The notes: a model not told the origin generated them from the letters alone. A DNA stretch of 38,215 nt from Oscillospiraceae bacterium (GCA_031271525.1 JAISVO010000037.1:1-38215); one strand, 5' to 3'. Numbered from the stretch's first letter, positions 4,158-28,111 are shown. A program made the numbers and translations.

Positions 4158-5816
4158 TTGGATCTATGCAACTGGTGGAAAGAAGCCGTCGTATACCAGA
4201 TATATCCGCGCAGTTTTCAGGATTCCAACGGCGACGGAATCGGCGACATACAGGGGATCATCAGCCGGCTGGATTATCTGAAGGATTTGGGAATCGACAT
4301 TATCTGGCTCAGTCCGGTCTATCAGTCCCCCAATATCGACGGCGGGTATGACATCTCCGATTATCAGGCAGTCTCCTCCGATTTCGGGACAATGGAGGAC
4401 ATGGAGCGGCTCTTGCAGCAAGCTCATCTGCGAGGACTGCGCGTCGTCATGGATTTGGTGGTCAACCACACTTCCGACCAGCACGCTTGGTTTTTAGAAT
4501 CCCGCTCGTCAAAAGACAATCCGAAACGGGATTGGTATATCTGGCGCGACGGTTTTCAGGACGGTGAGGAACCGAACGGGTTACGCAGCGTCTTCTCAGG
4601 TTCGGCGTGGGAGAAGGACGAGCAAACAGGGCAGTACTATATGCATCTGTTCGCGAGGGAACAGCCCGACCTGAACTGGGAGAATGCCGAGGTCCGCGAA
4701 GCGGTATACAGGATGATGCGGTGGTGGCTCGACAAAGGCGTTGACGGCTTCCGGATGGATGTGATCAACATGATCTCAAAACCGCCGGAGGCGCTGGCTG
4801 CGAGCGGCGGGGCTGGCTGCGAATGCGTCAACGGGCCGTATGTGCATACATACCTGCAAGAGATGAACAGAGAGGTCTTAAAACGGTACGATATCATGAC
4901 GGTGGGGGAAACGCCGGGTGTCACCGTTGAGCAAGCCCGGCAATACGGAGCCTCCGATTCGTCGGAATTGTCCATGATATTCCAATTTGAGCTGATGGAC
5001 ATAGACTCCGGGGCTTTAGGCAAGTGGAACCTACGCAGGTACGCGCTGCCGGAATTGAAGCGTATCCTGTCGCGCTGGCAGACGGGATTGGAAGGGTTCG
5101 CGTGGAACAGCCTGTTTTGGTCCAACCACGACCAACCGAGAGCCGTGAGCCGCTTTGGGGACGATTCCAACGACGAGAACCGGGTTTTGAGCGCAAAAAT
5201 GCTCGCCACCTGCCTGCACATGATGCAGGGCACGCCGTATATCTACCAAGGCGAGGAGCTTGGCATGACCAATATGCCATTTTCGGGATTGGAAGACATC
5301 CGGGACATCGAGACAGTCAACGCCTACAACGAGTTGGTCCGCCAAAAGCATATCTACACGCATGACGAGATGATGGCGAGGATCCGCAAATCCGGGCGTG
5401 ATAACGCCCGCACCCCGATGCAGTGGAACGGCGCGCAAAACGGCGGCTTTACCAATGGCACCCCGTGGATCGCGGTGAACCCCAACACCAAAACGATTAA
5501 CGCGGCCAGTCAAGCCGGCGACCCCGACTCGGTCTTCTCCTATTACAAAAAACTGATCCGGCTGCGTAAGCAATACCCGGTCATTGTGTACGGCTCATAT
5601 ACCGAGCCAGATCCCGGCGACGAGCGGGTTTTCGCGTATACCCGCAGATGGGGCGGTTCCGCGCTGTATGTACGGTGCAACTTCACGGCGGAGACGATAG
5701 ACAATATCGAGGTTCCGCGAAACGCGGAACTCCTGATCGGAAACTACCCGGAACCGGTCGAAACGATGCGTCCGTATGAGGCGCGCGTGTATTACGGTGA
5801 GTCGGATGAAGGGTAA
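4158..5816 (+). CDS. GH13 subfamily-31-type alpha-glucosidase, probably oligo-1,6-glucosidase / glucan 1,6-alpha-glucosidase (cytoplasmic)
   Basis: TTG start with AGGAGGAAGGA upstream. Motifs seen are WWKEAVVYQIYPRSFQDSNGDGIGD, DLVVNHTSDQH, GVDGFRMDVINMI (nucleophile Asp followed by Val), MTVGETPG (acid/base Glu) and FWSNHDQPR. No signal peptide. Confidence 0.92.
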   Translation: MDLCNWWKEAVVYQIYPRSFQDSNGDGIGDIQGIISRLDYLKDLGIDIIWLSPVYQSPNIDGGYDISDYQAVSSDFGTMEDMERLLQQAHLRGLRVVMDLVVNHTSDQHAWFLESRSSKDNPKRDWYIWRDGFQDGEEPNGLRSVFSGSAWEKDEQTGQYYMHLFAREQPDLNWENAEVREAVYRMMRWWLDKGVDGFRMDVINMISKPPEALAASGGAGCECVNGPYVHTYLQEMNREVLKRYDIMTVGETPGVTVEQARQYGASDSSELSMIFQFELMDIDSGALGKWNLRRYALPELKRILSRWQTGLEGFAWNSLFWSNHDQPRAVSRFGDDSNDENRVLSAKMLATCLHMMQGTPYIYQGEELGMTNMPFSGLEDIRDIETVNAYNELVRQKHIYTHDEMMARIRKSGRDNARTPMQWNGAQNGGFTNGTPWIAVNPNTKTINAASQAGDPDSVFSYYKKLIRLRKQYPVIVYGSYTEPDPGDERVFAYTRRWGGSALYVRCNFTAETIDNIEVPRNAELLIGNYPEPVETMRPYEARVYYGESDEG

Positions 5817-7654: not shown

Positions 7655-9181
7655 ATGAAAAAATCCCGACGCATTATGGTCTTGGCGCTCTGTCTGTTGC
7701 TGCTCGCGGCGGCGGCCGCGTGTAACAGTACCTCCGCACCGCCGGATAGCGGCGCGAACCCTCCCGGCAGCAGCCCCGGCGAAAACGACACGCCGGATAC
7801 GCCGGCGGATGACACACCGGCTGACAGTCAGCCTGCCGGGACCGACCGGTACCAGATCGGCGGAAAGGTTGTCGCGGCGACAAACGCCGGGCGTTCAACC
7901 GATCTGCATACGCTGTGGGAAAACTTCAATACATACTATCCAAACATCGAGCTGGAGATTGTCGAATACGAAACCAACACGGCGGAGTTCCTGACAGCGC
8001 AAGCGACGGCGGGCACGATGCCGGACGTGGTCATCGACGACGCCGATCAGATTTACTACTATATTTCCCAAGGTTGGGTGTATCCATTGGATTCGTTCGT
8101 TGAAAACGACGCCGATTTCGGATATGTCCCCGAGATGCTGACCGAAAGCTATACCTTCGGCGACCGGCTGTACGCGCTGCCGATGCAGACGCACTTCAAC
8201 GTCGTCTTTGTCAATATGGACTTGCTGAACGCGCTGAACATGGATCCGCCGGAATTTGACTGGACGCCCGAGGACTATAGGGAGTTTCTGAAAAACGGGA
8301 CAACCGACGAATATTCCGGCACCGAAATTCTTTGGGGGATCGACGAAATCCTCGCCGGCGCGATGAACGCGGAGAATGATTTCTATGGGTTTTCGCTGGC
8401 GGAGCATAAGTTCAATATGTCGGAATCGTGGGTTGACGCCGTCGGTCTGATGCGTGAAATGCGCGAGTATCCGGGGCTAGAGGCGTGGAGTTTACGGAAC
8501 TCGGGGAACGACGGCGAAGAGAACGACTATACCCGGAAATTCGGTTCGAGCAACGTGAGCGATAACCACATGGCCTTGAAGCTTGGCAAGGTGCTGTCCG
8601 ACCCGAGGGGGACGTGGGACGCCAACTGGCTTAAGACAGACTGTGATTTTGCTTGGGAGTTTTTCCCCTTCCCGCAGGGAGCCGACGCACTGGGACACCT
8701 GCCGATGCATGTGGACTGCTCTTGGGTCGTCTCCACGGCGCAAGCTCCGGAAGCCGCCTTTGAGGTCGCCCGCTTCTTCACCTACAGTTTGGAAGGCAAT
8801 CTGGAACGGATGACGATGCACGAAAACGGCGGCACCGACGCTTACACCGTCGACAACGACTTCTATATCCCGACGACAAATCACCCGGACGTGCGAAGCC
8901 GCTTTGAAAACCTCCCCGGCGTCACCGACGGGCTGGTCTACATGTTCGACAACATGAAAAACTCCTTCCGCGCCGATCTCAGCAAACTGGTTCCCGGGTG
9001 GTCGCAAGTGAACGACGAATATCTGAGTCCCTTGGGCAACGAAGTCAGGGACGGCATCACCGAGGCGGCGTCCGTCGCGGCGGAGCTCGACAATACGGCC
9101 ACTGCGGCGATCCAAAATTACTGGACCGACTTCCTCGACAAACTCAGCGCGATCCAAACGGAGTTTGACAGCGCCCCGTAG
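7655..9181 (+). CDS. Extracellular solute-binding lipoprotein (ABC, family 1, large about 500-aa type)
   Basis: Signal peptide and lipobox are MKKSRRIMVLALCLLLLAAAAAC. A Pro/Asp/Thr-rich linker follows, then an SBP-like body with GTMPDVVIDD. Confidence 0.85.
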   Translation: MKKSRRIMVLALCLLLLAAAAACNSTSAPPDSGANPPGSSPGENDTPDTPADDTPADSQPAGTDRYQIGGKVVAATNAGRSTDLHTLWENFNTYYPNIELEIVEYETNTAEFLTAQATAGTMPDVVIDDADQIYYYISQGWVYPLDSFVENDADFGYVPEMLTESYTFGDRLYALPMQTHFNVVFVNMDLLNALNMDPPEFDWTPEDYREFLKNGTTDEYSGTEILWGIDEILAGAMNAENDFYGFSLAEHKFNMSESWVDAVGLMREMREYPGLEAWSLRNSGNDGEENDYTRKFGSSNVSDNHMALKLGKVLSDPRGTWDANWLKTDCDFAWEFFPFPQGADALGHLPMHVDCSWVVSTAQAPEAAFEVARFFTYSLEGNLERMTMHENGGTDAYTVDNDFYIPTTNHPDVRSRFENLPGVTDGLVYMFDNMKNSFRADLSKLVPGWSQVNDEYLSPLGNEVRDGITEAASVAAELDNTATAAIQNYWTDFLDKLSAIQTEFDSAP

Positions 9182-9230
9182 CGCGCCGACAGTCTTTGGA
9201 ATCGAATAAGAACGGCAGGAGGGGCGGTTG

Positions 9231-12023
9231 TTGAAAAGACGAATCATTCTAATTTTCGTTTTGTGCGTTACGCTCGCGTTCGTTGTTCTGCCCCTGTGCT
9301 TTGCCGGGAACTTCGGCGACACGCTGCCCGACGCGGCCGGTCGTCATCTGTCCGTCGCTGCTGAACGCTGGAATGTTTATGAAGTAACGGAGGCATATGA
9401 ACTCGGCGGTCTGTCCATTCCGAAGGGTGAGATGGTCAGCGTCCCGATAACGCTGCCCGAGGCGGGGAATTACCGCGTGGCGCTGACGTATACCTTGCCG
9501 GACCCCGCCGTGCTGGACGCCGTGTTCACGGTGGGGACAGCACAGGGCGAATCGCGGGCGATCCTCCCCGTATTGTGGAGCGATTCCGGCGGACCTTTTC
9601 CGGTTGACCGCTACGGCAACGAGCTAAACCGAGATCAAGCCGCGCTGACACTTCCGGTGACCGCCGCACTGCGGCTCCAAGGCGCGGTGGGCGCGGACGA
9701 CCTGCTGCTCCCGGCGGGCGGCAGCGTATTGACCCTCCGCCCCGACACGCAGGCGATCATACTCGAGCGGCTGCTGCTGCTGCCAGAGCAAAGCGAACCG
9801 GCCACTCCGGCCGCCGGGAAACTGAACGGGGAACTAATCACACTGGAGGCGGAGAACTACACTCTCAAATCCGATTCGTTTATCCGGACCAAAGGCGTCC
9901 GCAATCCGGTACTGTCCCCTTACGACACATATTCGCGCAAGATGAACGCGATCGACGAGAACTCGTGGGATACCGCCGGGCAGAAGATCCTATGGACATT
10001 TGAGGTTCCGGAAGCGGGCCTTTACAACGCCGGGTTCCGTTACAGTCAGGTTTCGCGGCCCGGCAAGCGTTCGTACCGCCGGCTGGAGATCGACGGGCTG
10101 CCTGTCTCCGACGCGTTGATTCCGTTCGCGCCGACCCGGTTGGACGAGTATAAAAACTATACGGCGGACGGTTCGGTATATCTCGAAAAAGGGATCCACA
10201 CGCTGGCCCTGACGTCTGTGCTCGGCCCTGAGGAATCGGTGTATCACGAACTGATGCGGATTATGGGCGACCTTTCGGGTATGGGGATGGACCTGAAGAT
10301 TCTCACGGCAGGCAACACAGACCCAAACCGCACATGGGATATGAATGCCTACTTGCCGGAGATACCGGGGCGTTTGCTGCGCGCGGCGAAAGAACTGGAG
10401 CGGTGCTACGCCGATCTGTCGGCCGGCACCGAGCCTATATATGCCTCCGACCTGCTGTACGCCTCCGAAGTACTCCGCAGATTGTGCGAAGACACACGCA
10501 CGCTGCCAAACAAAGCCGGCCTGATCAGCGAGGGGGACGCCTCGATCAGCGCCTCGGTCAGCAATGTGCTGCAGACACTGCTGGAATCGCCGCTCTCACT
10601 CGACCGCATATACCTGACCTCCGGCGCTCCCCTGCCGGGCGACTCGGTTTCGCCTTTTACGCAGATTGCCGAGAGCATACGTACATTCGCGCATACCTTC
10701 TCGGCAGGAGCGTCCGGCTACGCGGTCGACGGCAGCGGGGACGCAGCCGAACTTCAAGTGTGGGTAGGCATGTCCGTACAGCACACGGAGGTTCTTCAGC
10801 AGTTGATTAATCAAAAGTTCAACGAGACGGGCGGAAAGAATATTCAGCTGTCCATCATGCCGAACCCCCAAAAGCTGGTGCTCGCCAATGCAACCGGAAC
10901 AGGCCCCGATGTCGTGCTGGGGGTTCCGTTTTATCTGCCATATGATTTTGCCATTCGCGGAGCCGCGAAAAACCTGTTGGAATATCAAGATTTTCTGAGT
11001 ATTTACGCGAAACAGTATAATTTGGAGGGTCTTGTTCCATTGAGTTACGACGGCGGGGTCCACGGGGCTGTGGAGAGCGTGAACTTCCAAGTCCTCTACT
11101 ACCGGAACGACATCATGGAAAAGCTTGGGCTCTCTCTGCCCGACACATGGGACGACGTGGTCGGCATGATGCCGGACCTCCTGCGTAACGAGATGAACTT
11201 CAATCTGTCTTTGGCCAACAACATAGGGTTCAAGACTTTCAACACCACAAGCCCCTTCATCTATCAAAACAAAGGTTCTTTCTTCAGCGCCGACGGAGCG
11301 TCTTCCGCTTTCACCGAAGGGGCCGCCGTCAACGGCTTCACGCAGATGACAGACCTGTTTTCGGCGTACTCTTTGAGCGAATACGTCGCCAATTTTTTCA
11401 ACGCCTTCCGGTACGGAGAGGTTCCGATCGGCGTGGGGGGTTACGATATGTATATGCGCCTGTCGGTCGCCGCCCCGGAATTGCAGGGACTTTGGGACAT
11501 CGCGCTTACGCCGGGTCACGCAATAGACGGTGAGGTCCTGCGGTATCAATCAGCCGACAGCACCGCCTGCATGATTTTCTCCGACTCCGACAAAACCGAT
11601 GAGGCTTGGGAGTTTTTGAAGTGGTGGCTGTCCGAGGAGACGCAGGTTCGGTTCTCCTATCAGCTCGAAAACACCTACGGCACGGAATACCGCTGGAACA
11701 CCGCAAACCTCGGCGCTTTTACCCAGCTTCCGTATCCGGAGGAGCACAAAGCGGTTATCCTTGAACAGCTCCGCTGGCAGAAGGAAAACATCCGGCACCC
11801 GGCGGGCTATATGGTGGAGCGCGAAGCGTCCAATGTGTGGAACAACGTCGTGGCAAACCACAAAGAGATTATGGCGTCGATCGACCGCGCGAAGATCGCC
11901 TCCGACCGGGAGATTCTGCGGAAGCTCAGGGAATTCGGCTTTGTCAGCGCTGAGGGCGAGGTCCTGCGCCCCTATCCTATCGATACGATCGGAGGTTTGT
12001 CGGAGGGAGCGGGCGACTCATGA
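9231..12023 (+). CDS. Giant (about 930 aa) secreted protein: CBM-like beta-sandwich modules, a helical linker and a C-terminal family-1 solute-binding domain
   Basis: Two adjacent TTG codons lie at 9228 and 9231. AGGAGGGG at 9217-9224 favours 9231. The N-terminal signal/anchor is [28 protein letters not shown]6/35-style segments are [13 protein letters not shown]...[21 protein letters not shown]...IHTLALT. The SBP-type segment begins near nt 10747 ([24 protein letters not shown]...GTGPDVVLG). Confidence 0.8.
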
Positions 12024-12943
12024 CAAAGAAACTCAGGAGCCACCGCGCGGGAATGGTGACCACCGGGCGAAGTGCCATCGTGATCATGCTGCTTCCCTAC
12101 GGCCTGCTGTTCACCCTGTTTATCATCCTCCCGGTCATCGCGGCCTTCGGATTGTCCTTCACCGATTTCGACACGATACAACCGCCCGCTTTCGCCGGGT
12201 TGAAAAATTATATCACCTTACTTACGGCCGACGAAGTGTTTATGCAGAAGGTTCTGCCGAACACCATCCTCTTCTCGCTGGTTGTTGGCGTAGGTGGATA
12301 CCTCCTGTCCTTCCTGTTGGCGTGGAGCCTTTCGCAGCTCACAAAAATCCCCCGAACCGTCATGGCGATCATCATTTATTTGCCGTCGATGACCGGCGGC
12401 GTCCTTCTCAGCGCGGTATGGGGCGTCATTTTCTCCGGCGAGAAGAGCGGGCCTCTCAACTACGCGCTGTTAAAGCTCGGCCTCATTGAGCAGCCGGTGC
12501 TTTGGCTGCAGTCGGAGTCCGCCCTGCTGATCATTATGATAATCGTCACGCTGTGGTCGAGCATGGGGATTGGGTTTTTAGCCATTTTAGCCGGTATTAT
12601 GAACGTCAATCAAGAGCTGTATGAGGCCGCGTATATCGACGGCGTCAGCAACCGTTTTCAAGAGATCGTCTACATTACGATCCCGAGTACCCGCCCTCAA
12701 ATGCTGTTCGGCGCGGTGATGGCGATCGTCAGTACCTTTTCGCAGAGCGGCGTCGGCGCGGCGCTGTCCGGCGCGAACCCAACCCCGGGGAACGCCGGGC
12801 AGCTGATCGTCCCCCATATTGAGGATTATGGGTTCCTGCGGTATGAGATGGGGTACGCCGCCGCGATCAGCGTCGCGCTGCTGCTGTTGATACGCCTTGC
12901 GTCGGTCGGCGCTAACAAGCTGTTCGGGTCGAAGGGGGAGTAG
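12020..12943 (+). CDS. Sugar ABC transporter permease (CUT1, MalF-like)
   Basis: ATGA overlap with the upstream stop. Six predicted TM segments. The EAA loop is [28 protein letters not shown]. Confidence 0.9.
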
Positions 12944-12945: not shown

Positions 12946-13857
12946 ATGGCAAGGAAGCGGAGGCTCATCCAGAATGGTATCAACCCCGCCCGTTTTGCCC
13001 GCGGGCAGATCAAGTTCTATGCCTTCCTCATCCCCCTATGCGCCGTCATGTCGTTACCTATCGTCTTTTTCTTCATAAACGCCTTTAAGCCGATGGAGGA
13101 GCTTTTCGCCTACCCGCCGCGCTTCTTTGTCAACCGCCCCACGCTTGACAACTTCATCCGGCTGTTTTCCATCTCGTCATCCACCACAATTCCGGCGTCC
13201 CGTTATCTGTTCAACAGCGTTCTGTCAACAGTTCTTGTCGTCGCGGCATCTCTCTGTATGTCGGTTTCAGCCGGATATGTCTTGAGCAAGAAGAGGTTTA
13301 GGCTTCGGAGCGCGTTGATGGAGGTCAACAATCTGGCGCTGATGTTTGTCGCGATTGCCGTGATGATCCCCCGGTACTTTATCATCGCCTACACCGGGCT
13401 GCAAAACAACTTCTTCGCCAACGTCGTTCCCCTTTTAGCCATGCCGGTCGGCCTTTTTCTGGTTAAGCAGTTCATAGACCAAATCCCGGATACCCTTGTC
13501 GAGGCGGCGGTCATCGATGGTGCCGGCGATTTCCGTATCCTGTCGAGCGTGGTCATGCCGCTGGTCAAGCCGGCTCTCGCGACGGTGTCGATCCTCTCAT
13601 TCCAGCTGTCGTGGAACAACGCCGAGGCCTCCGCGCTGTATATCAACAACGAAACGCTCAAGACATTCGCGTTCTACATGCAAAACCTCGGCGCGGGCGG
13701 TACCTCGTTCCTGCAAGGCGCGTCGGGAGGAAACAGCACAGCCGGCGCGGGGGTGGCCGCCGCCGCAATGTTGGTTATGTTTTTACCCAACCTGATCCTG
13801 TTTATCGTTTTGCAATCACAGGTTATGAACACAATGACGCACTCGGGGATTAAATAA
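12946..13857 (+). CDS. Carbohydrate ABC transporter permease (CUT1, MalG-like)
   Basis: 2-nt gap from the previous gene and a GGGGGAG RBS. The EAA loop is TLVEAAVIDGAGDFRILSSVVMPLVKP. A Gly/Ala-rich insert lies near the last TM. Confidence 0.9.
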   Translation: MARKRRLIQNGINPARFARGQIKFYAFLIPLCAVMSLPIVFFFINAFKPMEELFAYPPRFFVNRPTLDNFIRLFSISSSTTIPASRYLFNSVLSTVLVVAASLCMSVSAGYVLSKKRFRLRSALMEVNNLALMFVAIAVMIPRYFIIAYTGLQNNFFANVVPLLAMPVGLFLVKQFIDQIPDTLVEAAVIDGAGDFRILSSVVMPLVKPALATVSILSFQLSWNNAEASALYINNETLKTFAFYMQNLGAGGTSFLQGASGGNSTAGAGVAAAAMLVMFLPNLILFIVLQSQVMNTMTHSGIK

Positions 13858-13869: not shown

Positions 13870-15918
13870 ATGCCGCGGCGATGGAAATTTACTTTAACTT
13901 TTTGCCTGTCGGCGTTCCTTCTCTTCCCCTGCGCCTATGCCGGCGAAGGTACGGCGTATACATACACAATCTCGGTGAACGGGGACTGGATCCGCACGCA
14001 GGACGCCTACTTACCCGGCCGGATCCTGTTTCAGGATGGATCGCTCAACAAGCCGTACGACATATGTATCCGTGACGGAGCTATGTACGTCGCCGATTCG
14101 GGCGACGGTTGCGTTGTCCGCTACGATATGGCGACCGGCGAGAGCGTACGGTTCGGGGAGGACATTTTGGAAGGGCCGCGGGGCCTTTTCGTTTCAGCAG
14201 ACGGGCGCTGTTATGTCGCCGATTACGACGCGGAGCGGGTGGTGGTTTTTTCCTCCGACGGTCAGGCGGAGATGATCATAGACCGTCCGGAGAGTTACCT
14301 TTTCTCTGAACAAAGCCGGTACAAACCGACCGGCGTCGCGGTCGCCTCTTCCGGCATTATCTATGTTGTTGGCGAAGGCTCCTACGAAGGGATCATGCAG
14401 TTTTCCAAAAACGGCGGTTTCCAAGGGTATTATGCCGCAAACATGGCTGACATCAGCCTTCTGCAGCGCATACAGGAGCTGATTTTCAGCGAGCAGCAGC
14501 TCGGGCGTCTTCTAAACCGCACGCCACGCGCCATCCACGCGATAGATATTGATGAGTCAGACCTCGTATTCAGCGTCACGCAGGATGCCGCCGTGAGCTT
14601 CGAGTGGCGCGATGCCGTGACTTCGGGGGATGATAACGTCAAACGCCACAACTTTGCCGGGGAGAACATCCTGCGCAAAGAGGGCGGCATGGCGCAGGAG
14701 TGGAATTTTCATGATATTGCCGTAAGCCCCGGCGGCGGGTGCTATGTCCTTACGTCAACAGGATTGATCAACGAATACGACAGCTCGGCAAACCTTCTTT
14801 TTTCCTTTGGGGGGCGGGCTGTCTCAAGTGAGCGGAGCGGTTTGTTTACATCCGCCGCGGCGATTGATACCGACGAAAACGGGATTCTGTACGTACTCGA
14901 CATGGAACGGGGACATGTCCAAACCTTCTACCCGACCGAATTTGCGAACGCCACACACGCGGCGATCTCCGAACTGCTCGCGGGCAATTACGGGCAAAGC
15001 GAGCAGCTCTGGACCGAATTGCTCCGCTTAAACGGGTTGAGCTACCTAGCGCATTATGGATATGCCAAATGCCTCTTCGCGCAGCAGCGGTTTAGCGAAG
15101 CCTTGGAGCAGTACAGGATCGCGCGCGATATAACCGGTTACTCCGAAAGTTTTTGGGAACTCCGCGATGCTTGGCTGAACCGTTGGATCGGCGTCCTGCT
15201 GATGGCCGTTGTCGCGGCGGCTCTTCTCTTGTGGCTGTGGCGGAAGCTTGCGGCTTGTTCCCGCTTGCGGCGAGAACGCAAGCCGCTTACGGGTTGGCAA
15301 AAGGATACACTCTTGCTAAAAGAAATGCTGAGGCATCCGCTCGACAGTTTTTATTACATCAAGCGTGGAGAAAAGGGGAGTGTCGCGTTTGCCTCGGGGC
15401 TGTATGTCGCCGCGCTGGCGGTTTGGTTTTGGGATCGGCTATTCCGGGGTTTTGCCTTTAACCATACGAATATTCGTTATGAGCAGCCCCTCACGGTCGC
15501 GCTTCTCTTCCTCCTCCCTATCGGCTTATGGGTGACCGGGAACTATTTTGTGGCCTCTATCAACGACGGAGAAGGGAAATTCCGGGCGGTGTATGTCGGA
15601 ACCGCATACGCATTGGCCCCGTATATCCTCCTGATGCCAATACCGTTACTGCTCAGCTACGTCCTGACGCTCAACGAATCCTTTATCATACAGTTCTCAA
15701 CGGCATTCCTTCTGGCTTGGAGCGGTGTTCTCATTTTTGCCGGTGTGTCTGAAATCCACAACTACCGCTTCAAAGGCACGGTAAAGAACATTCTTCTCAC
15801 TGTTTTTTTCATGGTGATGGTCGTTGTGATATTCGTTGTCCTGTATTTGATTTGGCAGCAGGTGATTGAGTTTCTCGGCTCGGTCGGAGGGGAGGTTACT
15901 TATCGTGTTACGGCGTAA
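13870..15918 (+). CDS. Membrane protein: signal peptide, NHL-repeat beta-propeller, TPR-like helices and a C-terminal 5-TM Yip1-like domain
   Basis: AAGGAGGG RBS. The signal peptide ends ..FPCAYA/GE. Repeated NHL-type blades include PYDICIRDGAMYVADSGDGCVVRYD, PRGLFVSADGRCYVADYDAERVVVF, PTGVAVASSGIIYVVGEGS, FHDIAVSPGGGCYVLTSTG and AAAIDTDENGILYVLDMERGHVQTF. A helical segment follows (NYGQSEQLWTELLRLNG...RFSEALEQYRIARD), then a TM segment, a basic loop and five further TM helices. The Yip1 label is from memory of similar annotations. Confidence 0.75.
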   Translation: MPRRWKFTLTFCLSAFLLFPCAYAGEGTAYTYTISVNGDWIRTQDAYLPGRILFQDGSLNKPYDICIRDGAMYVADSGDGCVVRYDMATGESVRFGEDILEGPRGLFVSADGRCYVADYDAERVVVFSSDGQAEMIIDRPESYLFSEQSRYKPTGVAVASSGIIYVVGEGSYEGIMQFSKNGGFQGYYAANMADISLLQRIQELIFSEQQLGRLLNRTPRAIHAIDIDESDLVFSVTQDAAVSFEWRDAVTSGDDNVKRHNFAGENILRKEGGMAQEWNFHDIAVSPGGGCYVLTSTGLINEYDSSANLLFSFGGRAVSSERSGLFTSAAAIDTDENGILYVLDMERGHVQTFYPTEFANATHAAISELLAGNYGQSEQLWTELLRLNGLSYLAHYGYAKCLFAQQRFSEALEQYRIARDITGYSESFWELRDAWLNRWIGVLLMAVVAAALLLWLWRKLAACSRLRRERKPLTGWQKDTLLLKEMLRHPLDSFYYIKRGEKGSVAFASGLYVAALAVWFWDRLFRGFAFNHTNIRYEQPLTVALLFLLPIGLWVTGNYFVASINDGEGKFRAVYVGTAYALAPYILLMPIPLLLSYVLTLNESFIIQFSTAFLLAWSGVLIFAGVSEIHNYRFKGTVKNILLTVFFMVMVVVIFVVLYLIWQQVIEFLGSVGGEVTYRVTA

Positions 15919-18169
15919 CAAGAAAGGTCCGGTCTTGCTCGCACTCCTATTGGCTCTCGCGCTGTGTGTCAGCGTCTTTGCCGCCGGCACAGGCAAACAA
16001 AGCGCACCGCCGCCTGTCAGCCAAGCGGCGGACATCGAACTCAACTCTGTACGGTACGCAAAACCCGAGACGGAAACGGAGCGGGTCGTCAGCCCGGTCA
16101 CGCTGGACGGCTACGAGAGGAAGCTGGAAAACGGGACCTTGTCACTCTGGTTCCACGAGGAAACCGCGAGCTTACGTATTACGGACAAACGCAGCGGGTA
16201 TGTTTGGGGCTGCGTCGGCACTGAGCAGCCCAAGGGACTGAATAAATCGTGGTATTCGCTCGCGAGCTCCCTGCTGTCAATAGAGTATTACGACGAAAAG
16301 AACGCCGAAAAACGTGCGGGGATGATGGATGAGGAGACTGATTGCTCCTATGGGTGGACGTCTGAGGAACTGACCGCCCATGTGTCGTTTTCCGAAATCG
16401 GAATCTCATTGACCGTGCGGGTACGGCTGGATAACGAAAGCATCCTTCTTTCGGTTGACCCGGACAGCGTACGGGAATCGGGAGACGCGAAGATAAAATC
16501 TGTCTATTTCCTTCCGTTTTTGGGTGCGGTACGCGAAAACACCCTGTTAGGGTATATGCTGATCCCTGACGGGCCGGGCGCATTGATCCGTTATTCCCCT
16601 TCCGTTGGCTACACTTCGGTGTACAACAAGAGAATCTACGGCCCCGATATGAGCATAGACGCCCTCTCCGTCCCGAGCGGATTACAGGCGAGCCGGGGGG
16701 ACGACTACTTGGTGGCGGAGCCGCAGATCACCCTGCCGGTATTCGGCGTGGTACACGGCGCGTATCAAAACGCTTTTTACGGCGAAGTGACCGGCGGCGC
16801 GGAATACGCGTCGATACAAGCCTACGCTGCGGGTATGATTACCGACTTCAACTGGGTGACAGCGCGGTTTGATTTGCGCCAAAGCTATTTGAAACCCACA
16901 AACGGGGCTGGCGACGGGGTCTATGTCCCGCAGGAGGAGCAAAATAACGCGGCCCCGGCGGTGCGCTATACCTTCCTGACCGGCGATGACGCGGATTACA
17001 GCGGTATGGCCGTGGCTTACAGAACCGAGCTGGAAAAGCGGGGTATACTGGACACGCCCGTTAACGCGGCCGCCGAAACCCCGCTGTCCCTGACCGTCGT
17101 CGGAGCGGAGATACGGGACGGGTTCCTGTGGGACACCGTGGAACCCCTGACCACATTCGGGCAGGCTGCCGAAATGGCGGAGGATTTAAGGGACGCGGGA
17201 ATCAACAACATCACGATGGTGTATAGCGGCTGGCAGCGCGGCGGCCTCAGCAAGGCCAAAATGGGGGAGACAGCCATTCAGAGGAGCTTGGGCAGTCTGC
17301 GGGAATTGCAGGACCTGCGCGACTTTGTTTCACAAGCCGGCTCATTCTATTTGGAGGACAGGATTGTCACGGGGAATGACCCGCAGGTGTCGCGCCGCGG
17401 TCAGACCGCAGTCAACCGCTCTAAGGCATATATCCGTTTCACCCGCAACGACCCCGCGCTGATGTATAAAGACCGCTGGCTGGTCAAGCCCGGAATCGCC
17501 GCGCAGGCGCTTGTTACAGTGAGCCAGAAGATGCCGGGGTTTAGCAGGTTTTTGCCGGAATACGGCCAGTTCCTGTACTCTGACTATACGAGGAACTCCG
17601 AAACAACAAGGAGCGCGAACATGACGCTCCAAACCGAGACGGTATCCGAAGCCGGCACTCGGATCGCGCTGACCAATCCGAATCTTTATATGTGGCCCCA
17701 TACGGATAGGATCTTTGATGTGCCTGTCACAAGCGGACAGTACCTTTACACAACCGATACGGTTCCCTTTCTGCCCATTGTCTTTTCGGGGTACTTTGAG
17801 GCGTACGCGCCGAATATCAACCAAGGTTTTACCGCGCAAAACTCCGTTCTGCGGCTTGTGGAGTACGGCTTGAACCCGGCGTTTATCGTGATGGGGGCGG
17901 ACAATCAGGCTCTGGCCGACACCCCGCTGATCGACCTGTTTTCGATCCACTACCCCGATTGGCGTGAGCGAATCCTGACTGTTTATGATACCGTTTCGGT
18001 CCCGCTCAATAAAATCCGGGGCCGGAGCATCGTCAACCACCGCGTATTGGAGGAAGGTTTGGTACGCGTTCGGTATTCGGGCGGTGTGACGGTGTATGTG
18101 AATTACAACAACACGGATCGCATTGCCGACGGCTTGACCGTCCCCGCGAAAGGAGCGCTGGCGGTATGA
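15905..18169 (+). CDS. Signal-anchored/secreted 754-aa protein, DUF5696-like (function unknown)
   Basis: I prefer the GTG at 15905, with GGAGGGGAGG 7-8 nt upstream. This gives a 14-nt overlap with the NHL-Yip1 gene. The N-terminus is RRNKKGPVLLALLLALALCVSVFAAG. No motif of a named glycoside hydrolase family was recognised. The segment GYMLIPDGPGALIRY and the overall size recall proteins annotated as DUF5696. Confidence 0.7.
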   Translation: MLRRNKKGPVLLALLLALALCVSVFAAGTGKQSAPPPVSQAADIELNSVRYAKPETETERVVSPVTLDGYERKLENGTLSLWFHEETASLRITDKRSGYVWGCVGTEQPKGLNKSWYSLASSLLSIEYYDEKNAEKRAGMMDEETDCSYGWTSEELTAHVSFSEIGISLTVRVRLDNESILLSVDPDSVRESGDAKIKSVYFLPFLGAVRENTLLGYMLIPDGPGALIRYSPSVGYTSVYNKRIYGPDMSIDALSVPSGLQASRGDDYLVAEPQITLPVFGVVHGAYQNAFYGEVTGGAEYASIQAYAAGMITDFNWVTARFDLRQSYLKPTNGAGDGVYVPQEEQNNAAPAVRYTFLTGDDADYSGMAVAYRTELEKRGILDTPVNAAAETPLSLTVVGAEIRDGFLWDTVEPLTTFGQAAEMAEDLRDAGINNITMVYSGWQRGGLSKAKMGETAIQRSLGSLRELQDLRDFVSQAGSFYLEDRIVTGNDPQVSRRGQTAVNRSKAYIRFTRNDPALMYKDRWLVKPGIAAQALVTVSQKMPGFSRFLPEYGQFLYSDYTRNSETTRSANMTLQTETVSEAGTRIALTNPNLYMWPHTDRIFDVPVTSGQYLYTTDTVPFLPIVFSGYFEAYAPNINQGFTAQNSVLRLVEYGLNPAFIVMGADNQALADTPLIDLFSIHYPDWRERILTVYDTVSVPLNKIRGRSIVNHRVLEEGLVRVRYSGGVTVYVNYNNTDRIADGLTVPAKGALAV

Positions 18170-19035
18170 AACGGCGCTTGTTAAGCGTGTCGGCCCGGGA
18201 AGGGTTAGCGGGCTATCTGTTTTTTCTGCCGTGGATACTCGGCTTCGCGGTTTTTACCTTATACCCGGTCTTGTACTCTGTCTACATCAGCCTGAACGAG
18301 ATCCAAATATCGGCCGACGATTCTATACGCGCCGCATGGCAAGGCCTTCGGTATTATTATGAAGCGTTGCAAGTCGATACGAGTTTCTCCGCCGATTTAT
18401 ATGACGCGCTCCTTCATATCGTCTGCGCCACACCGGTGATTGTTGTTGTAGCCCTTGTGATCGCATTGTTTCTGTCCAAGCGGTATCCGCTGAGAACCTT
18501 TTTCCGGAGCGTATTCTTTCTGCCGGTGATCATCATGTCGGGTCCTGTTATTTCCGATCTGCTCGGGCAGTATTCTCTGGGACTGACGGAAGAATCACCG
18601 CTGTTATTCTCGTTTATGTCCGCCTTGCCGCAATTCCTGCAAAGCCCCGTTTTTTTCGTGCTGGACAATTTGGCGCTGATTCTATGGTTTTCCGGAGTGC
18701 AGATCCTGCTGTTCATCGCGGGTCTGAATAAAATCGGCCCCGAGCTGTATGAAGCGGCATCCATTGACGGAGCGTCGGCGTGGGAAAGCTTTTGGAAGAT
18801 CACGATGCCGCATCTGAAGCCCTTCGCGCTGCTTGGCGCCGTTTATTCCATCATGGAGGTGGCGAATTACGCAAACCTTTCCATCAACGAAAAAATCCGC
18901 AGTCACCTATACGAAATCGACCGCCCATACAGCTTTTCGTCCGCCATGAGTTGGATTTATTTCATCGCGGTTCTGCTTGTCTTGGGGCTTACATTCCTTC
19001 TGCTCGGAAATGGGAAAAGGGAGACGGCGAAATGA
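18166..19035 (+). CDS. Sugar ABC transporter permease (second pair, MalF-like)
   Basis: ATGA overlap with the DUF5696-like gene. Multi-TM protein. The EAA loop is ELYEAASIDGASAWESFWKITMPHLKP. Confidence 0.85.
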   Translation: MKRRLLSVSAREGLAGYLFFLPWILGFAVFTLYPVLYSVYISLNEIQISADDSIRAAWQGLRYYYEALQVDTSFSADLYDALLHIVCATPVIVVVALVIALFLSKRYPLRTFFRSVFFLPVIIMSGPVISDLLGQYSLGLTEESPLLFSFMSALPQFLQSPVFFVLDNLALILWFSGVQILLFIAGLNKIGPELYEAASIDGASAWESFWKITMPHLKPFALLGAVYSIMEVANYANLSINEKIRSHLYEIDRPYSFSSAMSWIYFIAVLLVLGLTFLLLGNGKRETAK

Positions 19036-19961
19036 AGACAGGAAAACATGGGCTGAAGATTCTTTTGGGCGGCAGGCGGCGGCCCGGCCTCCTTAGTTCC
19101 GCGTTCTATTTAGTTCTCCTTGGCGGTGTCGGCTTCCTCTTTTTATATCCCGTCCTGTATATGTGCGTTCAAAGTATCATGAGTCCGTCGGATATAACAG
19201 ATCCGGGCGTAGGGTGGATTCCCACCGCACTTTACGGAGGGAATTACGCAAAAGCTTTCACGACGCTGCATTTTCAAGAGGCGTTCTTTAACTCGCTGTA
19301 CTTATCGCTCGGGCCGTCCGTTCTCACCACGGTGGCCTCCTGCTTCATCGGTTATGGCCTAGCCCGTTTCCGTTTCCCGGGGAAAAGGATTTGGCTTGCC
19401 CTCCTTGTCGCGGCGTTTTTTATCCCGTCGCAGGTCATGATGATCCCGCGGTTCATGATGTTCTCTAGTTACCACATCATTAACACACCGCTGACGCAGT
19501 TTTTGCCGGCCGCGTTGGGACAGGGTATCAAAGGTTCGTTGTTCGTCCTCATTTTTATGCAGTTCTTTTCGAGTTACCCCAAGGCGTTGGACGAAGCCGC
19601 CGAAATCGACGGCGCGGGGAGAATGGGCGTATTCCTTCGCGTTGCCGTCCCTATGGCTAAACCCGCGATTGTCATATCCGTTTTATTCTCGTTCGTATGG
19701 TACTGGAACGAGACGACCCAAGCATCCCTGTTTTTTGGGACGCAAATCAAGACTCTGCCCATGAGATTGGGGAGTTTCGCTGAATCCTACAGCACAATAT
19801 ACGGAAGCTCGGCTAACGCCGCCAATGCCGCCGACGCGCTGAACGAGGCGATCAGCATGGCAGGCACCCTCCTGTCGGTACTGCCGCTGCTCCTGTTGTA
19901 TCTTGTCTTGCAGCGGCAGTTCGTGGAGAGCATTGAGAAATCCGGCATCACGGGCGAGTAA
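19032..19961 (+). CDS. Carbohydrate ABC transporter permease (second pair, MalG-like)
   Basis: I prefer the ATG at 19032 (MKTGKHGLKILLGG...), which overlaps the upstream stop as ATGA. The track start at 18780 lies inside the previous permease gene. The EAA loop is ALDEAAEIDGAGRMGVFLRVAVPMAKP. Confidence 0.9.
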   Translation: MKTGKHGLKILLGGRRRPGLLSSAFYLVLLGGVGFLFLYPVLYMCVQSIMSPSDITDPGVGWIPTALYGGNYAKAFTTLHFQEAFFNSLYLSLGPSVLTTVASCFIGYGLARFRFPGKRIWLALLVAAFFIPSQVMMIPRFMMFSSYHIINTPLTQFLPAALGQGIKGSLFVLIFMQFFSSYPKALDEAAEIDGAGRMGVFLRVAVPMAKPAIVISVLFSFVWYWNETTQASLFFGTQIKTLPMRLGSFAESYSTIYGSSANAANAADALNEAISMAGTLLSVLPLLLLYLVLQRQFVESIEKSGITGE

Positions 19962-20032: not shown

Positions 20033-20638
20033 ATGAAAAAGGCCCTGACACTCATTCTGACAATCGCATTTGCCCTCGGCGTTGCCGCTCCCGCGTTAGC
20101 CGTCTCGGAGGTTTATCTGGAAGGCGAAGATGTCTACGGCGGCAACATCAACAACGGAGCCACTATGGGCGGAACCGAGAACGACAACGCGGCTGATCTG
20201 CAACCGGGTGAAAAGCTCAGCTTTATCCTGCCGGCGGATTTGACCGAAGGTGAGTACACTGTCGAAGTAAGGACCACAGGCAACCGCACCGATTACAACG
20301 TCTATGTCGGCGATACCTTGGCGGCAACGGTGAAGCGTCCGGAAGGCTCGGGATGGGGCTTTGATGTTATGACCACCGACGCGGCGACGGCGAACATCCA
20401 ATTAAAACCCGGAGATACCATAGCGGTTGAAGCGCCGGACAACGGCGAGTACGGCTGGGTCGACTGGGTAAAGCTGACTTTGGTCAATGCCGCGCAACCC
20501 ACCGCCCCTGCGGAACCGGCCGCTCCCGCCAACAACCCCAAAACCGGGGACTTCGGATTCATCTGGCTTGCGATTGCCCTCCTTGGCGCTGCGTCGGTAA
20601 CCTCGGTTTTCCTCGTGAAAGCTAAGAAGAAATCGTAG
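20033..20638 (+). CDS. Cell-wall-anchored CBM-like surface protein (NPKTG sorting signal)
   Basis: AAAGGAGGA RBS. The signal peptide is MKKALTLILTIAFALGVAAPALA. A single beta-sandwich-like module follows (VYLEGEDVYGG...EYGWVDWVKLTL), then the Pro/Ala linker AAQPTAPAEPAAPA. The sorting signal is NPKTG (20534-20548), a hydrophobic stretch and a KAKKKS tail. Confidence 0.8.
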   Translation: MKKALTLILTIAFALGVAAPALAVSEVYLEGEDVYGGNINNGATMGGTENDNAADLQPGEKLSFILPADLTEGEYTVEVRTTGNRTDYNVYVGDTLAATVKRPEGSGWGFDVMTTDAATANIQLKPGDTIAVEAPDNGEYGWVDWVKLTLVNAAQPTAPAEPAAPANNPKTGDFGFIWLAIALLGAASVTSVFLVKAKKKS

Positions 20639-21415: not shown

Positions 21416-23230
21416 TCACGGGTAGATCATTCTTCCCTTTTCGTCGGGGATTTCGGTGAGCCGGTAGAAGTAGGTGTTGATCACATCCCGCCACTCCTTG
21501 GCGTTGTCGAGCTGACGCCGGAGCCTCTCCAGCACGGATTGGTATGCGCTGTCTGGCAGCAGGGGTTTCATTGAGATCCATGTCGCGATGTAGTTTTCAA
21601 CATCCTCGACCCCCTCGAAGTGGGTGTCATAGATGTGCTGGAGGATCGTCTTGCCGCTCTTGAGAATATAATCGTACGGCATCCGGTGAAAATACAGAAG
21701 CATCTCCTCCGGGCAAGTCGCGGGGTCGCTGTAGAGCTTGTCGAGGTACGGGTGGTATTGCGCCGTATAGCCGGTGCCCTTCTCGGTGCGGTCGACGCCG
21801 ATCGATGTGCGGCTGGCGCGGTGGTAGGTGCCCCATTTCATAAATTCATAGCCTTCCGGGCTTGGCCCGTAGTGGTGATGGATGTTCACCATCCAGCAAA
21901 CACCCAGCGGCGCGTTGTATTTTTCGTATACATCCCGAGAGGTCAGCAACATGTTCAGCAAAGGCTCCCGAAGCTGCGGCTCGGTGCCGAAGGTCAAGCC
22001 GATCCAGTCGTTTAAGACATCTTTTGCCTTTTCCGCCGGATTCCACGCGAAACGTCCGAAGGCGTAAAGGTTTGCCTGCGCCAGTGTGTGCCCCGTCCAA
22101 TTCTCGTCCCGCCCCGTGTTGGCAACCGCCGTCACCGCAATGATCTCCCGCCCGACCAAGTCACGCGTCTGGCGGGTATCGGAAACCGGTGATGTAAAGA
22201 TTTCCTCCCACTGGGCGGCTAAGGCGTACAGGTCGATCTGCTGCCCGGTGTACTCCTGCGTTATCTGCAGCTCGATCGCCTGCGCCGTGTTCCGCATCGC
22301 GCCGAGGAGGGGGGAATTCGGCTCCCGCACTTGAAAGTCGGAGGGGCCGTACTTAATTTGGAGAATAACGTTGCCGTCAAACGTTCCGTCCAGCGGTTGG
22401 AAGTGGTCATATGCCGCCTTGGGGCGGTCTGTTTGGGCGTCCCGCCAGTCCTGCTCGCAGTTATAGACGAAGCAGCGCCAGTAGGTTTTGCCGCCGTGCG
22501 GCTTGAGAGCGCGGGCGATGACGTTCGCGCCGTCCGCCTGTGTCCGTCCAAGAGCCGCCGGTCCGGCGCGGAACTCGGAGTCGGCTTTCACCAAGAACCC
22601 CGCGAGGTCGGGAATCGCGGCATACACCATATCGGCGGCGGCACGCCACCACACGGCGACGCCTTCGTCCAGAGGGTCGGAGGTTGGTAAGCCGCCCAGC
22701 ATGACCGGACTGTTGAAATCGACCGCGACGATGATCTTGATGTGATACGGACGGAAGATTTCAGCGAGCGCCGCGAGATCGGGCAGAAGTTCGCCGGTGA
22801 TCAGCTTGGCGCTCCGCCCGGTAACATTGACATTGTTGAAGCAGATCCGGTTGATTCCAACCGAAGCCAGCAGTCGGGCGTAAAAGCGGATCCGCTCGGG
22901 GTCGTAGGAAATGTTTCCGTTTTGAAAAAAGAGGGACGCGCCGCTGTAGCCGCGTTCGACGACCCCCGTGATGTTGTCCCAATGGTTGAGGATCCGCTCC
23001 GAAACAGCCGGAGCGCTCGTGACGGAGAAGTCGGTTTCGCCCAATAGTATCTTCTCCCGCAGGGCATACGAGCCGTACAGCTTCCCCGCTTCGTCGGCGC
23101 TTGCGACGGAGTAGACGCCGTTTATACACGACAGACGGTAACCTTCGGGCGGAAGAGCGAGGTCGGTTTCGCATTTGAGCTCATACGGAGCGTCGGTTTG
23201 CAGCCACAGGCGGTCTTCACGATACGGCAC
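21416..23230 (-). CDS. aguA: GH67 alpha-glucuronidase
   Basis: Long collinear similarity to remembered Geobacillus AguA: NHWDN...ERGYSGASLFF, YARLLASVGINRICFNNVNV, FLVKADSEFRAGP, WRCFVYNCEQDWRD, GPSDFQVREP, ITQEYTGQQ, NWTGHTLAQANLYAFGR and KEWRDVINTYFYR. The catalytic Glu/Asp/Glu positions are present. GTG start (complement of 23228-23230). Confidence 0.93.
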   Translation of the reverse strand: MPYREDRLWLQTDAPYELKCETDLALPPEGYRLSCINGVYSVASADEAGKLYGSYALREKILLGETDFSVTSAPAVSERILNHWDNITGVVERGYSGASLFFQNGNISYDPERIRFYARLLASVGINRICFNNVNVTGRSAKLITGELLPDLAALAEIFRPYHIKIIVAVDFNSPVMLGGLPTSDPLDEGVAVWWRAAADMVYAAIPDLAGFLVKADSEFRAGPAALGRTQADGANVIARALKPHGGKTYWRCFVYNCEQDWRDAQTDRPKAAYDHFQPLDGTFDGNVILQIKYGPSDFQVREPNSPLLGAMRNTAQAIELQITQEYTGQQIDLYALAAQWEEIFTSPVSDTRQTRDLVGREIIAVTAVANTGRDENWTGHTLAQANLYAFGRFAWNPAEKAKDVLNDWIGLTFGTEPQLREPLLNMLLTSRDVYEKYNAPLGVCWMVNIHHHYGPSPEGYEFMKWGTYHRASRTSIGVDRTEKGTGYTAQYHPYLDKLYSDPATCPEEMLLYFHRMPYDYILKSGKTILQHIYDTHFEGVEDVENYIATWISMKPLLPDSAYQSVLERLRRQLDNAKEWRDVINTYFYRLTEIPDEKGRMIYP

Positions 23231-27745: not shown

Positions 27746-27748
27746 GAC

Positions 27749-28111
27749 TTATTCCGCCTCCCTTAAGATGTCACTCGTCGCGATCACGGAAATCCCCGTT
27801 CCGGCGAGGTTGTCAAGGATCACGCCACCGCACCCCGTGCGGGTATCGACCACGATGTCCGCAAGCTCCCGGAGCGCCGCGGGGATCAAACCCTTCGGTA
27901 TCTCCCCCGCGCTCCGCACCGGCAGCGCCGGGGCGTCCGGGAACACCGTCCGGACGGTTGTTTGGAGGGTTCGCATCGGGTTTTGCAGTTCGGCGGCCCC
28001 AAACGCCTCGCCCTTTTGGCAGAGATTTCCTGTCACCGTGACGGCGCCGCCTTCTTGGACCGCCGTGAGACGGCATCCGACGGGGCAGACGATGCAGAGC
28101 ATCTTTGTCAT
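27749..28111 (-). CDS. DUF1667-domain protein (small Cys-rich subunit of GlpA/GlpB-type dehydrogenases in Firmicutes and Thermotogae)
   Basis: 120 aa beginning MTKMLCIVCPVGCRLT...GNLCQKG. ATGA overlap with the upstream gene and a 3-nt gap to the kinase gene. Confidence 0.8.
   Translation of the reverse strand: MTKMLCIVCPVGCRLTAVQEGGAVTVTGNLCQKGEAFGAAELQNPMRTLQTTVRTVFPDAPALPVRSAGEIPKGLIPAALRELADIVVDTRTGCGGVILDNLAGTGISVIATSDILREAE

Follow-up and report, generated by a model that had tools for sequence, protein, structure and literature searches.

An NHL propeller and Yip1-family membrane protein encoded in a conserved seven-gene cassette of CUT1-type importers

YknW of Bacillus subtilis, a membrane protein of the Yip1 family, modulates how YknXYZ, a transporter of the ATP-binding cassette (ABC) type, is assembled, according to two reports (PMC4887032; PMC4338810). 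We analyzed a stretch of 38,215 nucleotides from an Oscillospiraceae bacterium (GCA_031271525.1, JAISVO010000037.1:1-38215; hereafter the window), in which a gene on the plus strand (13870–15918) encodes a protein, here called Y, that combines an NHL beta-propeller, TPR-like hairpins and a Yip1 domain. The gene is part of a cassette that specifies a CUT1-type importer together with a constant group of accessory subunits that have no precedent, and this cassette is widespread, strictly conserved and apparently undescribed. An earlier reading of the sequence alone (the original prediction) had regarded the role of Yip1 proteins in bacteria as unknown, which overlooks YknW as a Yip1-family accessory protein of an ABC transporter.

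Y resembles YknW in being a bacterial Yip1-family membrane protein encoded in one operon with ABC transporter subunits (PMC4887032). YknW is small and without an ectodomain, whereas Y has a propeller-TPR ectodomain of about 430 residues with its own transmembrane helix. Moreover, YknW serves a MacB-type exporter with a membrane-fusion protein and protects against the SDP toxin, whereas Y is encoded in a type I sugar-importer cassette with substrate-binding proteins (SBPs) and a protein resembling glycoside hydrolase (GH) family 129, and the direction of transport differs. The eukaryotic YIPF proteins (Yip1p/Yif1p, YIPF1–7) share with Y the Pfam Yip1 domain, a predicted five-helix core, a cytoplasmic N-terminal side and an exoplasmic C-terminus. 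These proteins act in Golgi/ER trafficking, bind Rab/Ypt GTPases through cytosolic N-terminal domains and form alpha/beta oligomers, whereas the large domain of Y is predicted to lie outside, and its likely partners are transporter components rather than trafficking machinery.

The extracellular part of Y has its own precedents. PknD of Mycobacterium tuberculosis (PDB code 1rwi) carries a six-bladed NHL propeller outside a bacterial membrane on a single transmembrane helix; there the propeller is joined to a cytoplasmic Ser/Thr kinase, whereas in Y the helix leads into the Yip1 core. Y was also considered as a PknD-like receptor kinase, which was rejected, as there is no kinase domain and the cytoplasmic part is a 45-residue loop. 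The designed Pizza propellers, six-bladed NHL structures that derive from PknD, are among the closest sequence relatives of the Y propeller in the PDB.

With CUT1 importers, such as MalEFGK2, the cassette has in common BPD_transp_1 permeases with EAA loops, SBPs of the SBP_bac_1 type and, in two of the loci studied here (L007 and L090), a MalK/MsmK-type ATPase. A canonical importer of this class is usually described as a single SBP, a single permease pair and an ATPase, and lacks any accessory subunit in the membrane, whereas the cassette always contains two permease pairs, an SBP of about 950 residues with a CBM35-like half, an NHL-Yip1 protein and a GH129-like protein.

In the SusCD utilisome of Bacteroidota, surface glycan-binding proteins and a glycosidase are held on a transporter, so that a constant chassis is combined with exchangeable specificity. 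That system is built on a TonB-dependent outer-membrane barrel, whereas the cassette encodes ABC permeases of the cytoplasmic membrane, and a complex of the cassette products is only proposed here. A system for cycloisomalto-oligosaccharides in Tepidibacillus (PMC13084667) targets an alpha-1,6-glucan, as the window locus appears to do; the paper makes no mention of permeases or of genes of unknown function in its cluster, and gives no sign of the cassette. No published description of the cassette was found in a literature search whose coverage excluded most subscription journals, and the terms 'accessory', 'NHL', 'beta-propeller' and 'four permease' are all absent from the text of a September 2026 review of bacterial glycoside transporters.

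Gene order and occurrence of the cassette

The seven cassette genes are denoted S (big SBP), A, B, C and E (permeases), Y (NHL-TPR-Yip1) and D (DUF5696). Loci were fetched by similarity to Y (88 in total), and their open reading frames (ORFs) were called and labeled by phmmer with the window proteins. The order S-A-B-Y-D-C-E was found in all 74 complete loci; the other 14 were cut by contig ends and are consistent with this order as far as visible. In the 74 complete loci, Y and D are always located between the two permease pairs and were never seen apart from four permeases, and both were detected in 84 of the 88 loci. A gene for a small SBP is placed just upstream of the cassette in 60 of the 74. 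Sampling from the DUF5696 side gave the same picture: all seven contexts (23–37% DUF5696 identity), which include C. thermarum, Lederbergia ruris, a Paenibacillus and a contig with a protein named for Fervidobacterium gondwanense, have a Yip1 module beside DUF5696. We consider it very likely that Y is an obligate subunit of a seven-gene importer cassette.

The original prediction had paired Y with the downstream DUF5696-like gene on the basis of a 14-nt overlap. This overlap is present in the window, where the GTG start of D (15905) follows a GGAGG sequence and the TAA stop of Y occupies 15916–15918. Across the loci, with starts taken from the longest ORF, the commonest Y/D overlap is also 14 nt (34 loci), followed by 8 nt (17 loci). 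The overlapping genes suggest translational coupling, in line with the stoichiometric co-production that had been proposed. The pairing itself is conserved, with Y and D adjacent in all but one lineage; what the original prediction did not anticipate is that the two belong to a strict seven-gene ABC cassette, and not just to a pair.

The sole deviating lineage (L027/L031, 12002–16951) has a gene for a secreted protein of 1,649 residues inserted between Y and D. By eye, the insert resembles a GH31-type enzyme that bears F5/8-type and laminin-G-like repeats and, C-terminally, a dockerin. Two further loci, L029 and L030, were examined as exceptions to the Y-D pairing and were rejected as such, being truncated copies of the L027/L031 lineage, in which D lies further downstream. 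In another locus, a GDSL esterase gene is found between permeases A and B (L092, 5470–6885). The cassette thus tolerates the insertion of specificity enzymes.

More than 200 full-length homologues of Y (about 680 residues, 45–77% identical) share its architecture, and are found mainly in Oscillospiraceae, Ruminococcaceae, Acutalibacteraceae and Lachnospiraceae. A scan of species-representative genomes, one per species, returned 290 relatives of Y; in addition to Clostridia, the carriers include Fictibacillus, Neobacillus, Sutcliffiella, Perspicuibacillus, a Bacillus species, a metagenome-assembled genome (MAG) of Defluviitaleaceae and a MAG of Anaerolineaceae. An exhaustive HMMER search with residues 357–682 of Y alone matched 1,632 representative clusters (E ≤ 1e-3), and 205 were matched when the limit was set at E ≤ 1e-30. 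Among the 150 best clusters, about 122 are 630–760 residues long and were matched at about residues 345–680, i.e. they represent the same fusion.

The full cassette was also seen outside Bacillota, in a Fervidobacterium-like contig (L006, Thermotogota) and in the Anaerolineaceae MAG (L077, Chloroflexota). Its occurrence there suggests that the seven genes have moved horizontally as one unit. The cassette recurs with many glycan specificities, both in gut Oscillospiraceae, Lachnospiraceae and Acutalibacteraceae and in soil Bacillaceae and Paenibacillus, and provides a concrete, testable context for DUF5696 and for prokaryotic Yip1 proteins. Cultivable carriers exist (Fictibacillus, Neobacillus, Lederbergia and Paenibacillus), which makes genetics and biochemistry feasible.

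Architecture and predicted topology of Y and its partners

The Y gene is an ORF for 682 residues at the position given in the original prediction, and its ATG start codon is preceded by a ribosome binding site (AGGAGG, 7 nt upstream). All of its features described below lie on the plus strand. The N-terminus (13870–13941, residues 1–24) matches a cleavable signal peptide, with the basic start MPRRWK, a hydrophobic core (hydropathy, residues 7–25) and an end at CAYA/GE that follows the −3/−1 alanine rule; Ala24, at position −1, is at least 90% conserved among 40 homologues. Y was also considered as a lipoprotein, which was rejected, since the LFPC sequence is not a lipobox and AYA/G suits signal peptidase I.

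The signal peptide is followed by an NHL beta-propeller (13945–14937, residues 26–356). The Pfam NHL family (PF01436) is matched at 38.5 bits (cut-off 20). An AlphaFold2 model of Y, built on the homologue alignment, has a mean predicted local distance difference test (pLDDT) score of 82 and shows beta-strands between residues 31 and 355. The best Foldseek matches of the model are the six-bladed NHL propellers of TRIM71, Thin, TRIM2/3 and Pizza6, with target-normalized TM-scores of 0.75–0.79 for the six-bladed NHL domains and E-values down to 4e-14. The propeller, for which at least five blades had been predicted, therefore has six. A sequence search of the PDB placed the propeller nearest to the designed Pizza proteins and to PknD's extracellular sensor domain (E = 1e-16 to 3e-9), with TRIM-NHL proteins also matched; the closest natural bacterial sequence is the PknD domain (1rwi, E = 3e-9). 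The N-terminal motif of the propeller, YTxT..W[IT]RTQDAY (residues 30–47), is invariant.

The next segment (14938–15129, residues 357–420) was predicted to contain about two TPR-like hairpins, and four helices are present in the model (residues 357–371, 374–387, 392–404 and 408–417). TPR_16 matches residues 365–422 with 30.0 bits (E = 7e-7), just short of its cut-off of 32.7; TPR_19, TPR_2 and TPR_14 likewise remain below theirs, and PF13432 is recorded in the precomputed annotation of many homologues. TPR-like is therefore the safe level of description for these hairpins. A helical stalk (15130–15240, residues 421–457) leads into the first transmembrane helix, TM1 (residues 439–457); in the model it is part of one long helix (residues 421–467), which is followed by a helical bundle (residues 475–681). 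TM1 is separated by a basic cytoplasmic loop (15241–15375, residues 458–502, 13 Lys and Arg residues), with a conserved HPxDxxY motif at residues 489–495, from the Yip1 core (15376–15915), which comprises five transmembrane helices (residues 503–659) and an extracellular C-terminal tail. The Pfam Yip1 family (PF04893) is matched at 43.4 bits (cut-off 28.6) over residues 485–655, corresponding to model positions 2–171 of 173, and the domain is recorded in the precomputed annotation of nearly all homologues. Both the NHL and the Yip1 assignments thus hold. The loops of the core contain the invariant polar residues I..G.G and T.NE. The Pfam scan of Y revealed no kinase or other output domain; weak matches below threshold were seen for SGL in Y and for Tachylectin in one homologue.

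By Kyte-Doolittle hydropathy, the signal peptide is followed by a hydrophilic stretch of 413 residues, TM1, a loop of 45 residues and five more helices. The predicted inside loops are rich in Lys and Arg (18, versus 4 in the predicted outside loops), and the propeller is therefore predicted to lie outside the cell, as originally proposed, and not in the cytoplasm. The positive-inside rule and hydropathy likewise predict a cytoplasmic N-terminal side for the five-helix core and a C-terminal tail outside. The number of helices accords with the five predicted for the Yip1 family in general (PMC6682643).

Natural split variants are informative about the organization of the membrane part, which the original prediction described as a single body of six transmembrane helices. 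In L089 (7695–9988), the position of Y is held by two adjacent genes, whose products of 518 and 235 residues align to residues 56–449 (propeller, TPR and TM1; E = 8e-26) and 486–679 (Yip1 core; E = 2e-19) of the window protein, respectively. Similarly, adjacent genes in L091 (2093–4262) encode an NHL protein of 504 residues and a Yip1 protein of 226 residues. These are two independent, distant split cassettes, and in both the break point falls in the basic cytoplasmic loop, with the first protein ending after the TM1 helix. Therefore, although TM1, the basic loop and five more helices are all present as predicted, the six-helix body is better described as two modules, of which one is the ectodomain, anchored by a helix of its own, and the other the Yip1 core of five helices; the two evidently work together. 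The permease directly upstream of the NHL gene in L091 (459–2072) is 537 residues long, nearly twice the usual length, and may be fused or extended.

The co-encoded DUF5696 protein was modeled with a pLDDT of 89 and a predicted template modeling (pTM) score of 0.89. In the model, an N-terminal anchor helix is followed by a beta-sandwich and a beta/alpha barrel, and a second beta-sandwich forms the C-terminal part. The top Foldseek match is a GH129 enzyme, the 3,6-anhydro-D-galactosidase of Zobellia (5opq, E = 1e-31), with TM-scores of 0.63 (query-normalized) and 0.72 (target-normalized). NagBb of Bifidobacterium (5wzn), also of GH129, was matched as well, followed by GH101 and then by GH36, GH31 and GH97. 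A search of the PDB with a single DUF5696 sequence gave no match, and a profile of 41 DUF5696 sequences matched the GH129 structure 8rzk (E = 3.4e-8). DUF5696 is, on the strength of the model and the profile, a remote homologue of GH129/GH101 with an N-terminal membrane anchor. It shares the three-domain fold of these enzymes (ZgGH129 5opq/8rzk and NagBb 5wzn; TM-scores 0.63–0.72, E = 1e-31 to 1e-25), and differs in a sequence identity of only about 13%, in the membrane anchor, in its constant association with the cassette and in a nucleophile position that is not strictly conserved. In the barrel, E653 is Asp or Glu in all 60 cassette sequences compared and D618 is Asp in 59. The best candidate nucleophile, D560 (in LYSDY), is Asp or Glu in 53 of the 60; it is not a carboxylate in the other seven, and it is Tyr in a distant subfamily, so that a minority has His, Asn or Tyr here. 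Judged by these residues, DUF5696 may act as an enzyme in part of the cassettes and, in the rest, as a pseudo-enzyme that serves for binding.

In the big SBP, a variable N-terminal half, which contains a CBM35-like module (about residues 245–370), is followed by a helical segment (about residues 410–490) and, as the third part, by an SBP fold. A profile of the N-terminal half matches the CBM35 of a cycloisomalto-oligosaccharide glucanotransferase (E = 6e-6), and Pfam CBM_35 matches below threshold were found in 15 of 35 members. The SBP fold is unusually conserved (52% median identity) across cassettes with different substrates.

Component conservation and possible roles

The enzyme genes that flank the cassette vary freely. 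They encode GH66 and GH13 in the window and elsewhere GH31, GH65, GH35/42-like, GH3, GH16, GH30, GH5, GH78, GH36 and GH125 enzymes, PF10091 proteins and CE2/GDSL esterases; GH31 accounts for 20 of 101 sampled cassette neighbors. Against this changing background, the median identity to the window proteins was computed for each component over the 74 cassettes. Permeases A (65%) and B (60%) rank highest, followed by the C-terminal domain of the big SBP (52%), permease E (50%), the TPR segment (49%), the propeller and permease C (48% each), the Yip1 core (42%) and DUF5696 (38%). The N-terminal half of the big SBP (34%) and the small SBP (33%) are the most variable. By this ranking, the propeller behaves as part of the constant core, and not as the substrate-facing parts do.

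The same component ranking was obtained from six complete pairs of paralogous cassettes within single genomes. Each copy has its own Y and D, and the propellers of a pair are 43–53% identical, or 74% in one recent duplicate. Having a dedicated Y and D for each copy suggests that these are cognate, non-interchangeable subunits. Genomes with two cassettes are represented by the locus pairs L012/L030, L014/L035, L036/L046, L037/L053, L048/L058, L068/L072 and L070/L071, in one case on the same contig.

Co-variation was assessed with mirror-trees, i.e. from matrices of pairwise distances over 60 cassettes, which provide weak evidence. The propeller correlates best with DUF5696 (r = 0.91). With the mean permease distance regressed out, its partial correlations are 0.55 with the N-terminal domain of DUF5696, 0.49 with the N-terminal half of the big SBP and, for the barrel of DUF5696, 0.45. 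For the Yip1 core, the highest correlations are those with permeases A, B and E (r about 0.84), and no link to the extracellular parts is left after the regression. As far as such distances can tell, the pattern fits an extracellular module and a membrane module. Two permease heterodimers are present in every cassette, sometimes with a single adjacent SBP gene.

What the analysis shows directly are the domains, the topology as predicted, the order of the genes and their overlaps, the split variants and the ranking by conservation. We infer, with about even confidence, that Y is a membrane scaffold in a specialized CUT1-type ABC importer of glycans; the physical contacts described in the following are all part of this inference. 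The five helices of the Yip1 core would lie in the membrane, packed against the permease domains of the ABC transporter, in the manner of YknW with YknXYZ. The TPR-like hairpins and the propeller would stand outside on their own transmembrane helix and bind a constant protein partner, and not the variable glycan. This partner would most probably be the co-translated, membrane-anchored, GH129-like DUF5696 protein, and possibly the big SBP too. Capture by the CBM35-like module and the SBPs, possible trimming by DUF5696 and import by the two translocators would thus be physically coupled, with an ATPase provided in trans or by a gene that heads the cassette, and with an extra lipoprotein SBP often present. 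Propellers and TPR repeats typically mediate interactions between proteins. The original prediction had envisaged the propeller as a docking platform for a polysaccharide or for the partner exoprotein. Across cassettes whose glycoside hydrolases are unrelated, the propeller keeps an identity of about 48%, while values of 33–34% are reached by the small SBP and by the CBM35-like half of the big SBP; therefore, on these identities, a constant protein partner fits better, and a polysaccharide is the less likely of the two ligands.

Several points weigh against a scaffold of this kind. Conserved gene order is a sign of functional linkage, not of contact, and the scaffold model gives no reason for the presence of two permease pairs. 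Propellers of the NHL and SGL types can be enzymes or have small molecules as ligands; the weak SGL matches and the Tachylectin match in one homologue, all below threshold, belong here, and a glycan feature common to all substrates may be the ligand of the propeller. In addition, Y may look more conserved than it is, since similarity to Y was the basis on which the loci were fetched, and the mirror-tree signal could equally reflect constraints shared among extracellular proteins on one side and membrane proteins on the other.

A bolder form of the scaffold model, which we put forward only tentatively, is that the seven gene products form a stable supercomplex in the cytoplasmic membrane, as an ABC-type counterpart of the Bacteroidota utilisome, in which Y clamps the two translocators together and docks both the GH129-like enzyme or pseudo-enzyme and the CBM35-bearing receptor. 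Long oligosaccharides would then be captured, trimmed and imported without release. If so, this would be the first defined molecular role for a Yip1 domain, that of a membrane organizer of transporter complexes, and the role could extend to the eukaryotic YIPF family. If the cassette products do work as one machine, this would also change models of glycan foraging by the carriers and the annotation of such loci in data from microbiomes.

It is improbable that the propeller is instead a glycan-capture lectin, which binds the substrate and passes it to the SBPs and permeases while the Yip1 core is a mere anchor. Such a function would suit an extracellular propeller within a glycan-utilization operon; some beta-propellers are lectins, and the sub-threshold SGL and Tachylectin matches mentioned above agree with it. 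However, a lectin would have to stay at about 48% identity across cassettes with unrelated hydrolases, over which the small SBP and the CBM35-like half are far more variable. Two SBPs and a CBM35-like module are already encoded in the cassette, and a plain anchor would not require five helices of a conserved Yip1 core whose loops have invariant motifs.

We also consider unlikely an autonomous complex of Y and D at the cell surface, co-regulated with the ABC transporters and not physically part of them, in which Y anchors, activates or chaperones a GH129-like hydrolase. The adjacency and 14-nt overlap of the two genes, the GH129/GH101 fold and profile-level GH129 homology of DUF5696, and its best co-variation with the propeller are all expected of such a pair. 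On the other hand, Y and D invariably lie between the two permease pairs in the complete loci, the divergence of the Yip1 core tracks that of permeases A, B and E, and the candidate nucleophile D560 is replaced by a non-carboxylate in 7 of 60 sequences and by Tyr in the distant subfamily.

A sensor or gate, in which the propeller senses an external ligand, as proposed for PknD, and tunes the transporter through the Yip1 core and the basic loop with its HPxDxxY motif, is highly unlikely. The PknD sensor domain is the closest natural bacterial match in the PDB, the cytoplasmic loop does contain a conserved motif, and a review of the YIPF family speculates that Yip1 proteins may be receptors (PMC6682643). 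Nevertheless, Y has no kinase or other output domain, regulators are separately encoded and differ between loci (LacI, AraC or two-component systems), and the gene overlaps suggest co-production with structural genes, which would be unusual for a regulator. Most unlikely of all is that the Yip1 core is a channel or transporter for a solute or a glycan chain, with the propeller guiding the substrate in: hydrophilic residues in Yip1 transmembrane helices have been taken to hint at such an activity (PMC6682643) and the Y loops have their invariant polar residues, but two translocation pathways are already available from the four canonical ABC permeases and their EAA loops, five helices in a single copy make a poor pore, and transport activity is known for no Yip1 protein (PMC4338810; PMC6682643).

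The operon in the window and neighboring genes

The operon in the window is preceded by a divergent gene for a LacI-family regulator (2930–3961, minus strand), which probably controls it. All genes from here to the end of the cassette are on the plus strand. Two locus-specific enzymes come first, a cytoplasmic GH13 (4158–5816) and a GH66 enzyme of the dextranase type with a lipoprotein signal (start at 5776 or 5806, end at 7638). With GH66 outside and GH13 inside, the locus is therefore assigned to the use of dextran or isomalto-oligosaccharides (alpha-1,6-glucan), and the cassette most probably serves their uptake, as far as enzyme families indicate. The GH66 lipoprotein at the surface would cleave the glucan extracellularly, and GH13 would complete its breakdown within the cytoplasm. 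The small lipoprotein SBP (7655–9181, 508 residues), which is frequent, optional and the most variable component, is followed by the big SBP (9228–12023, 931 residues) with its variable N-terminal half and CBM35-like module, helical linker and conserved SBP fold (residues 518–809).

Permeases A (12020–12943) and B (12946–13857) precede Y, and the DUF5696 gene (15905–18169) follows it. The latter encodes 754 residues, with an N-terminal anchor or signal and the GH129/GH101-like three-domain fold, and matches PF18952 with 521 bits. Permease C (18166–19035) overlaps the DUF5696 stop by 4 nt, and permease E (19032–19961, ATG at 19032) overlaps the stop of permease C by 4 nt. A 4-nt overlap is also found between S and A; apart from the 14 nt between Y and D, the remaining junctions are gaps of 2 and 12 nt. 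SBP_bac_1/8 domains are present in two genes of the window and BPD_transp_1 in four. All four permeases have an EAA-type coupling loop (at residue 202 in A, 186 in B and 196 in C). In a set of 60 cassettes, a strict regular expression recovered the motif in 32 to 60 cases for the different permeases. Both permease pairs of the window look competent, judging by these loops.

No CUT1-type (MalK/MsmK) ATPase gene was found in the window, where the two ABC_tran genes are those of ABC-2 exporters. Such a gene is also missing from most Clostridia loci. In the Lederbergia locus L007 (303–1421) and the Paenibacillus locus L090 (1868–2986), a MalK/MsmK-type ATPase (ABC_tran and OB_MalK) is the first gene of the cassette. 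In Bacillota, ATPases of the MsmK type can be supplied in trans, and this is likely also the case for the cassette of the window.

Directly after the cassette, a gene at 20033–20638 encodes a protein of 201 residues with a signal peptide, a C-terminal sortase-like NPKTG motif, a transmembrane helix and a KAKKKS tail. It has a weak match to DUF4469 (Ig-like) and may be a wall-anchored surface protein. The rest of the window contains unrelated neighbors, a GH67 alpha-glucuronidase (21416–23230, minus strand) and a glycerol-catabolism block (24466–31091, minus strand) with an FGGY kinase, a GlpA-like protein (DAO and BFD domains), a pyridine-nucleotide oxidoreductase and an FAD-linked oxidase. 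The last block (31993–36553, plus strand), likewise unrelated, encodes an ABC-2 exporter together with an auxiliary protein that is GldG-like (ABC_transp_aux) and with DUF4340.

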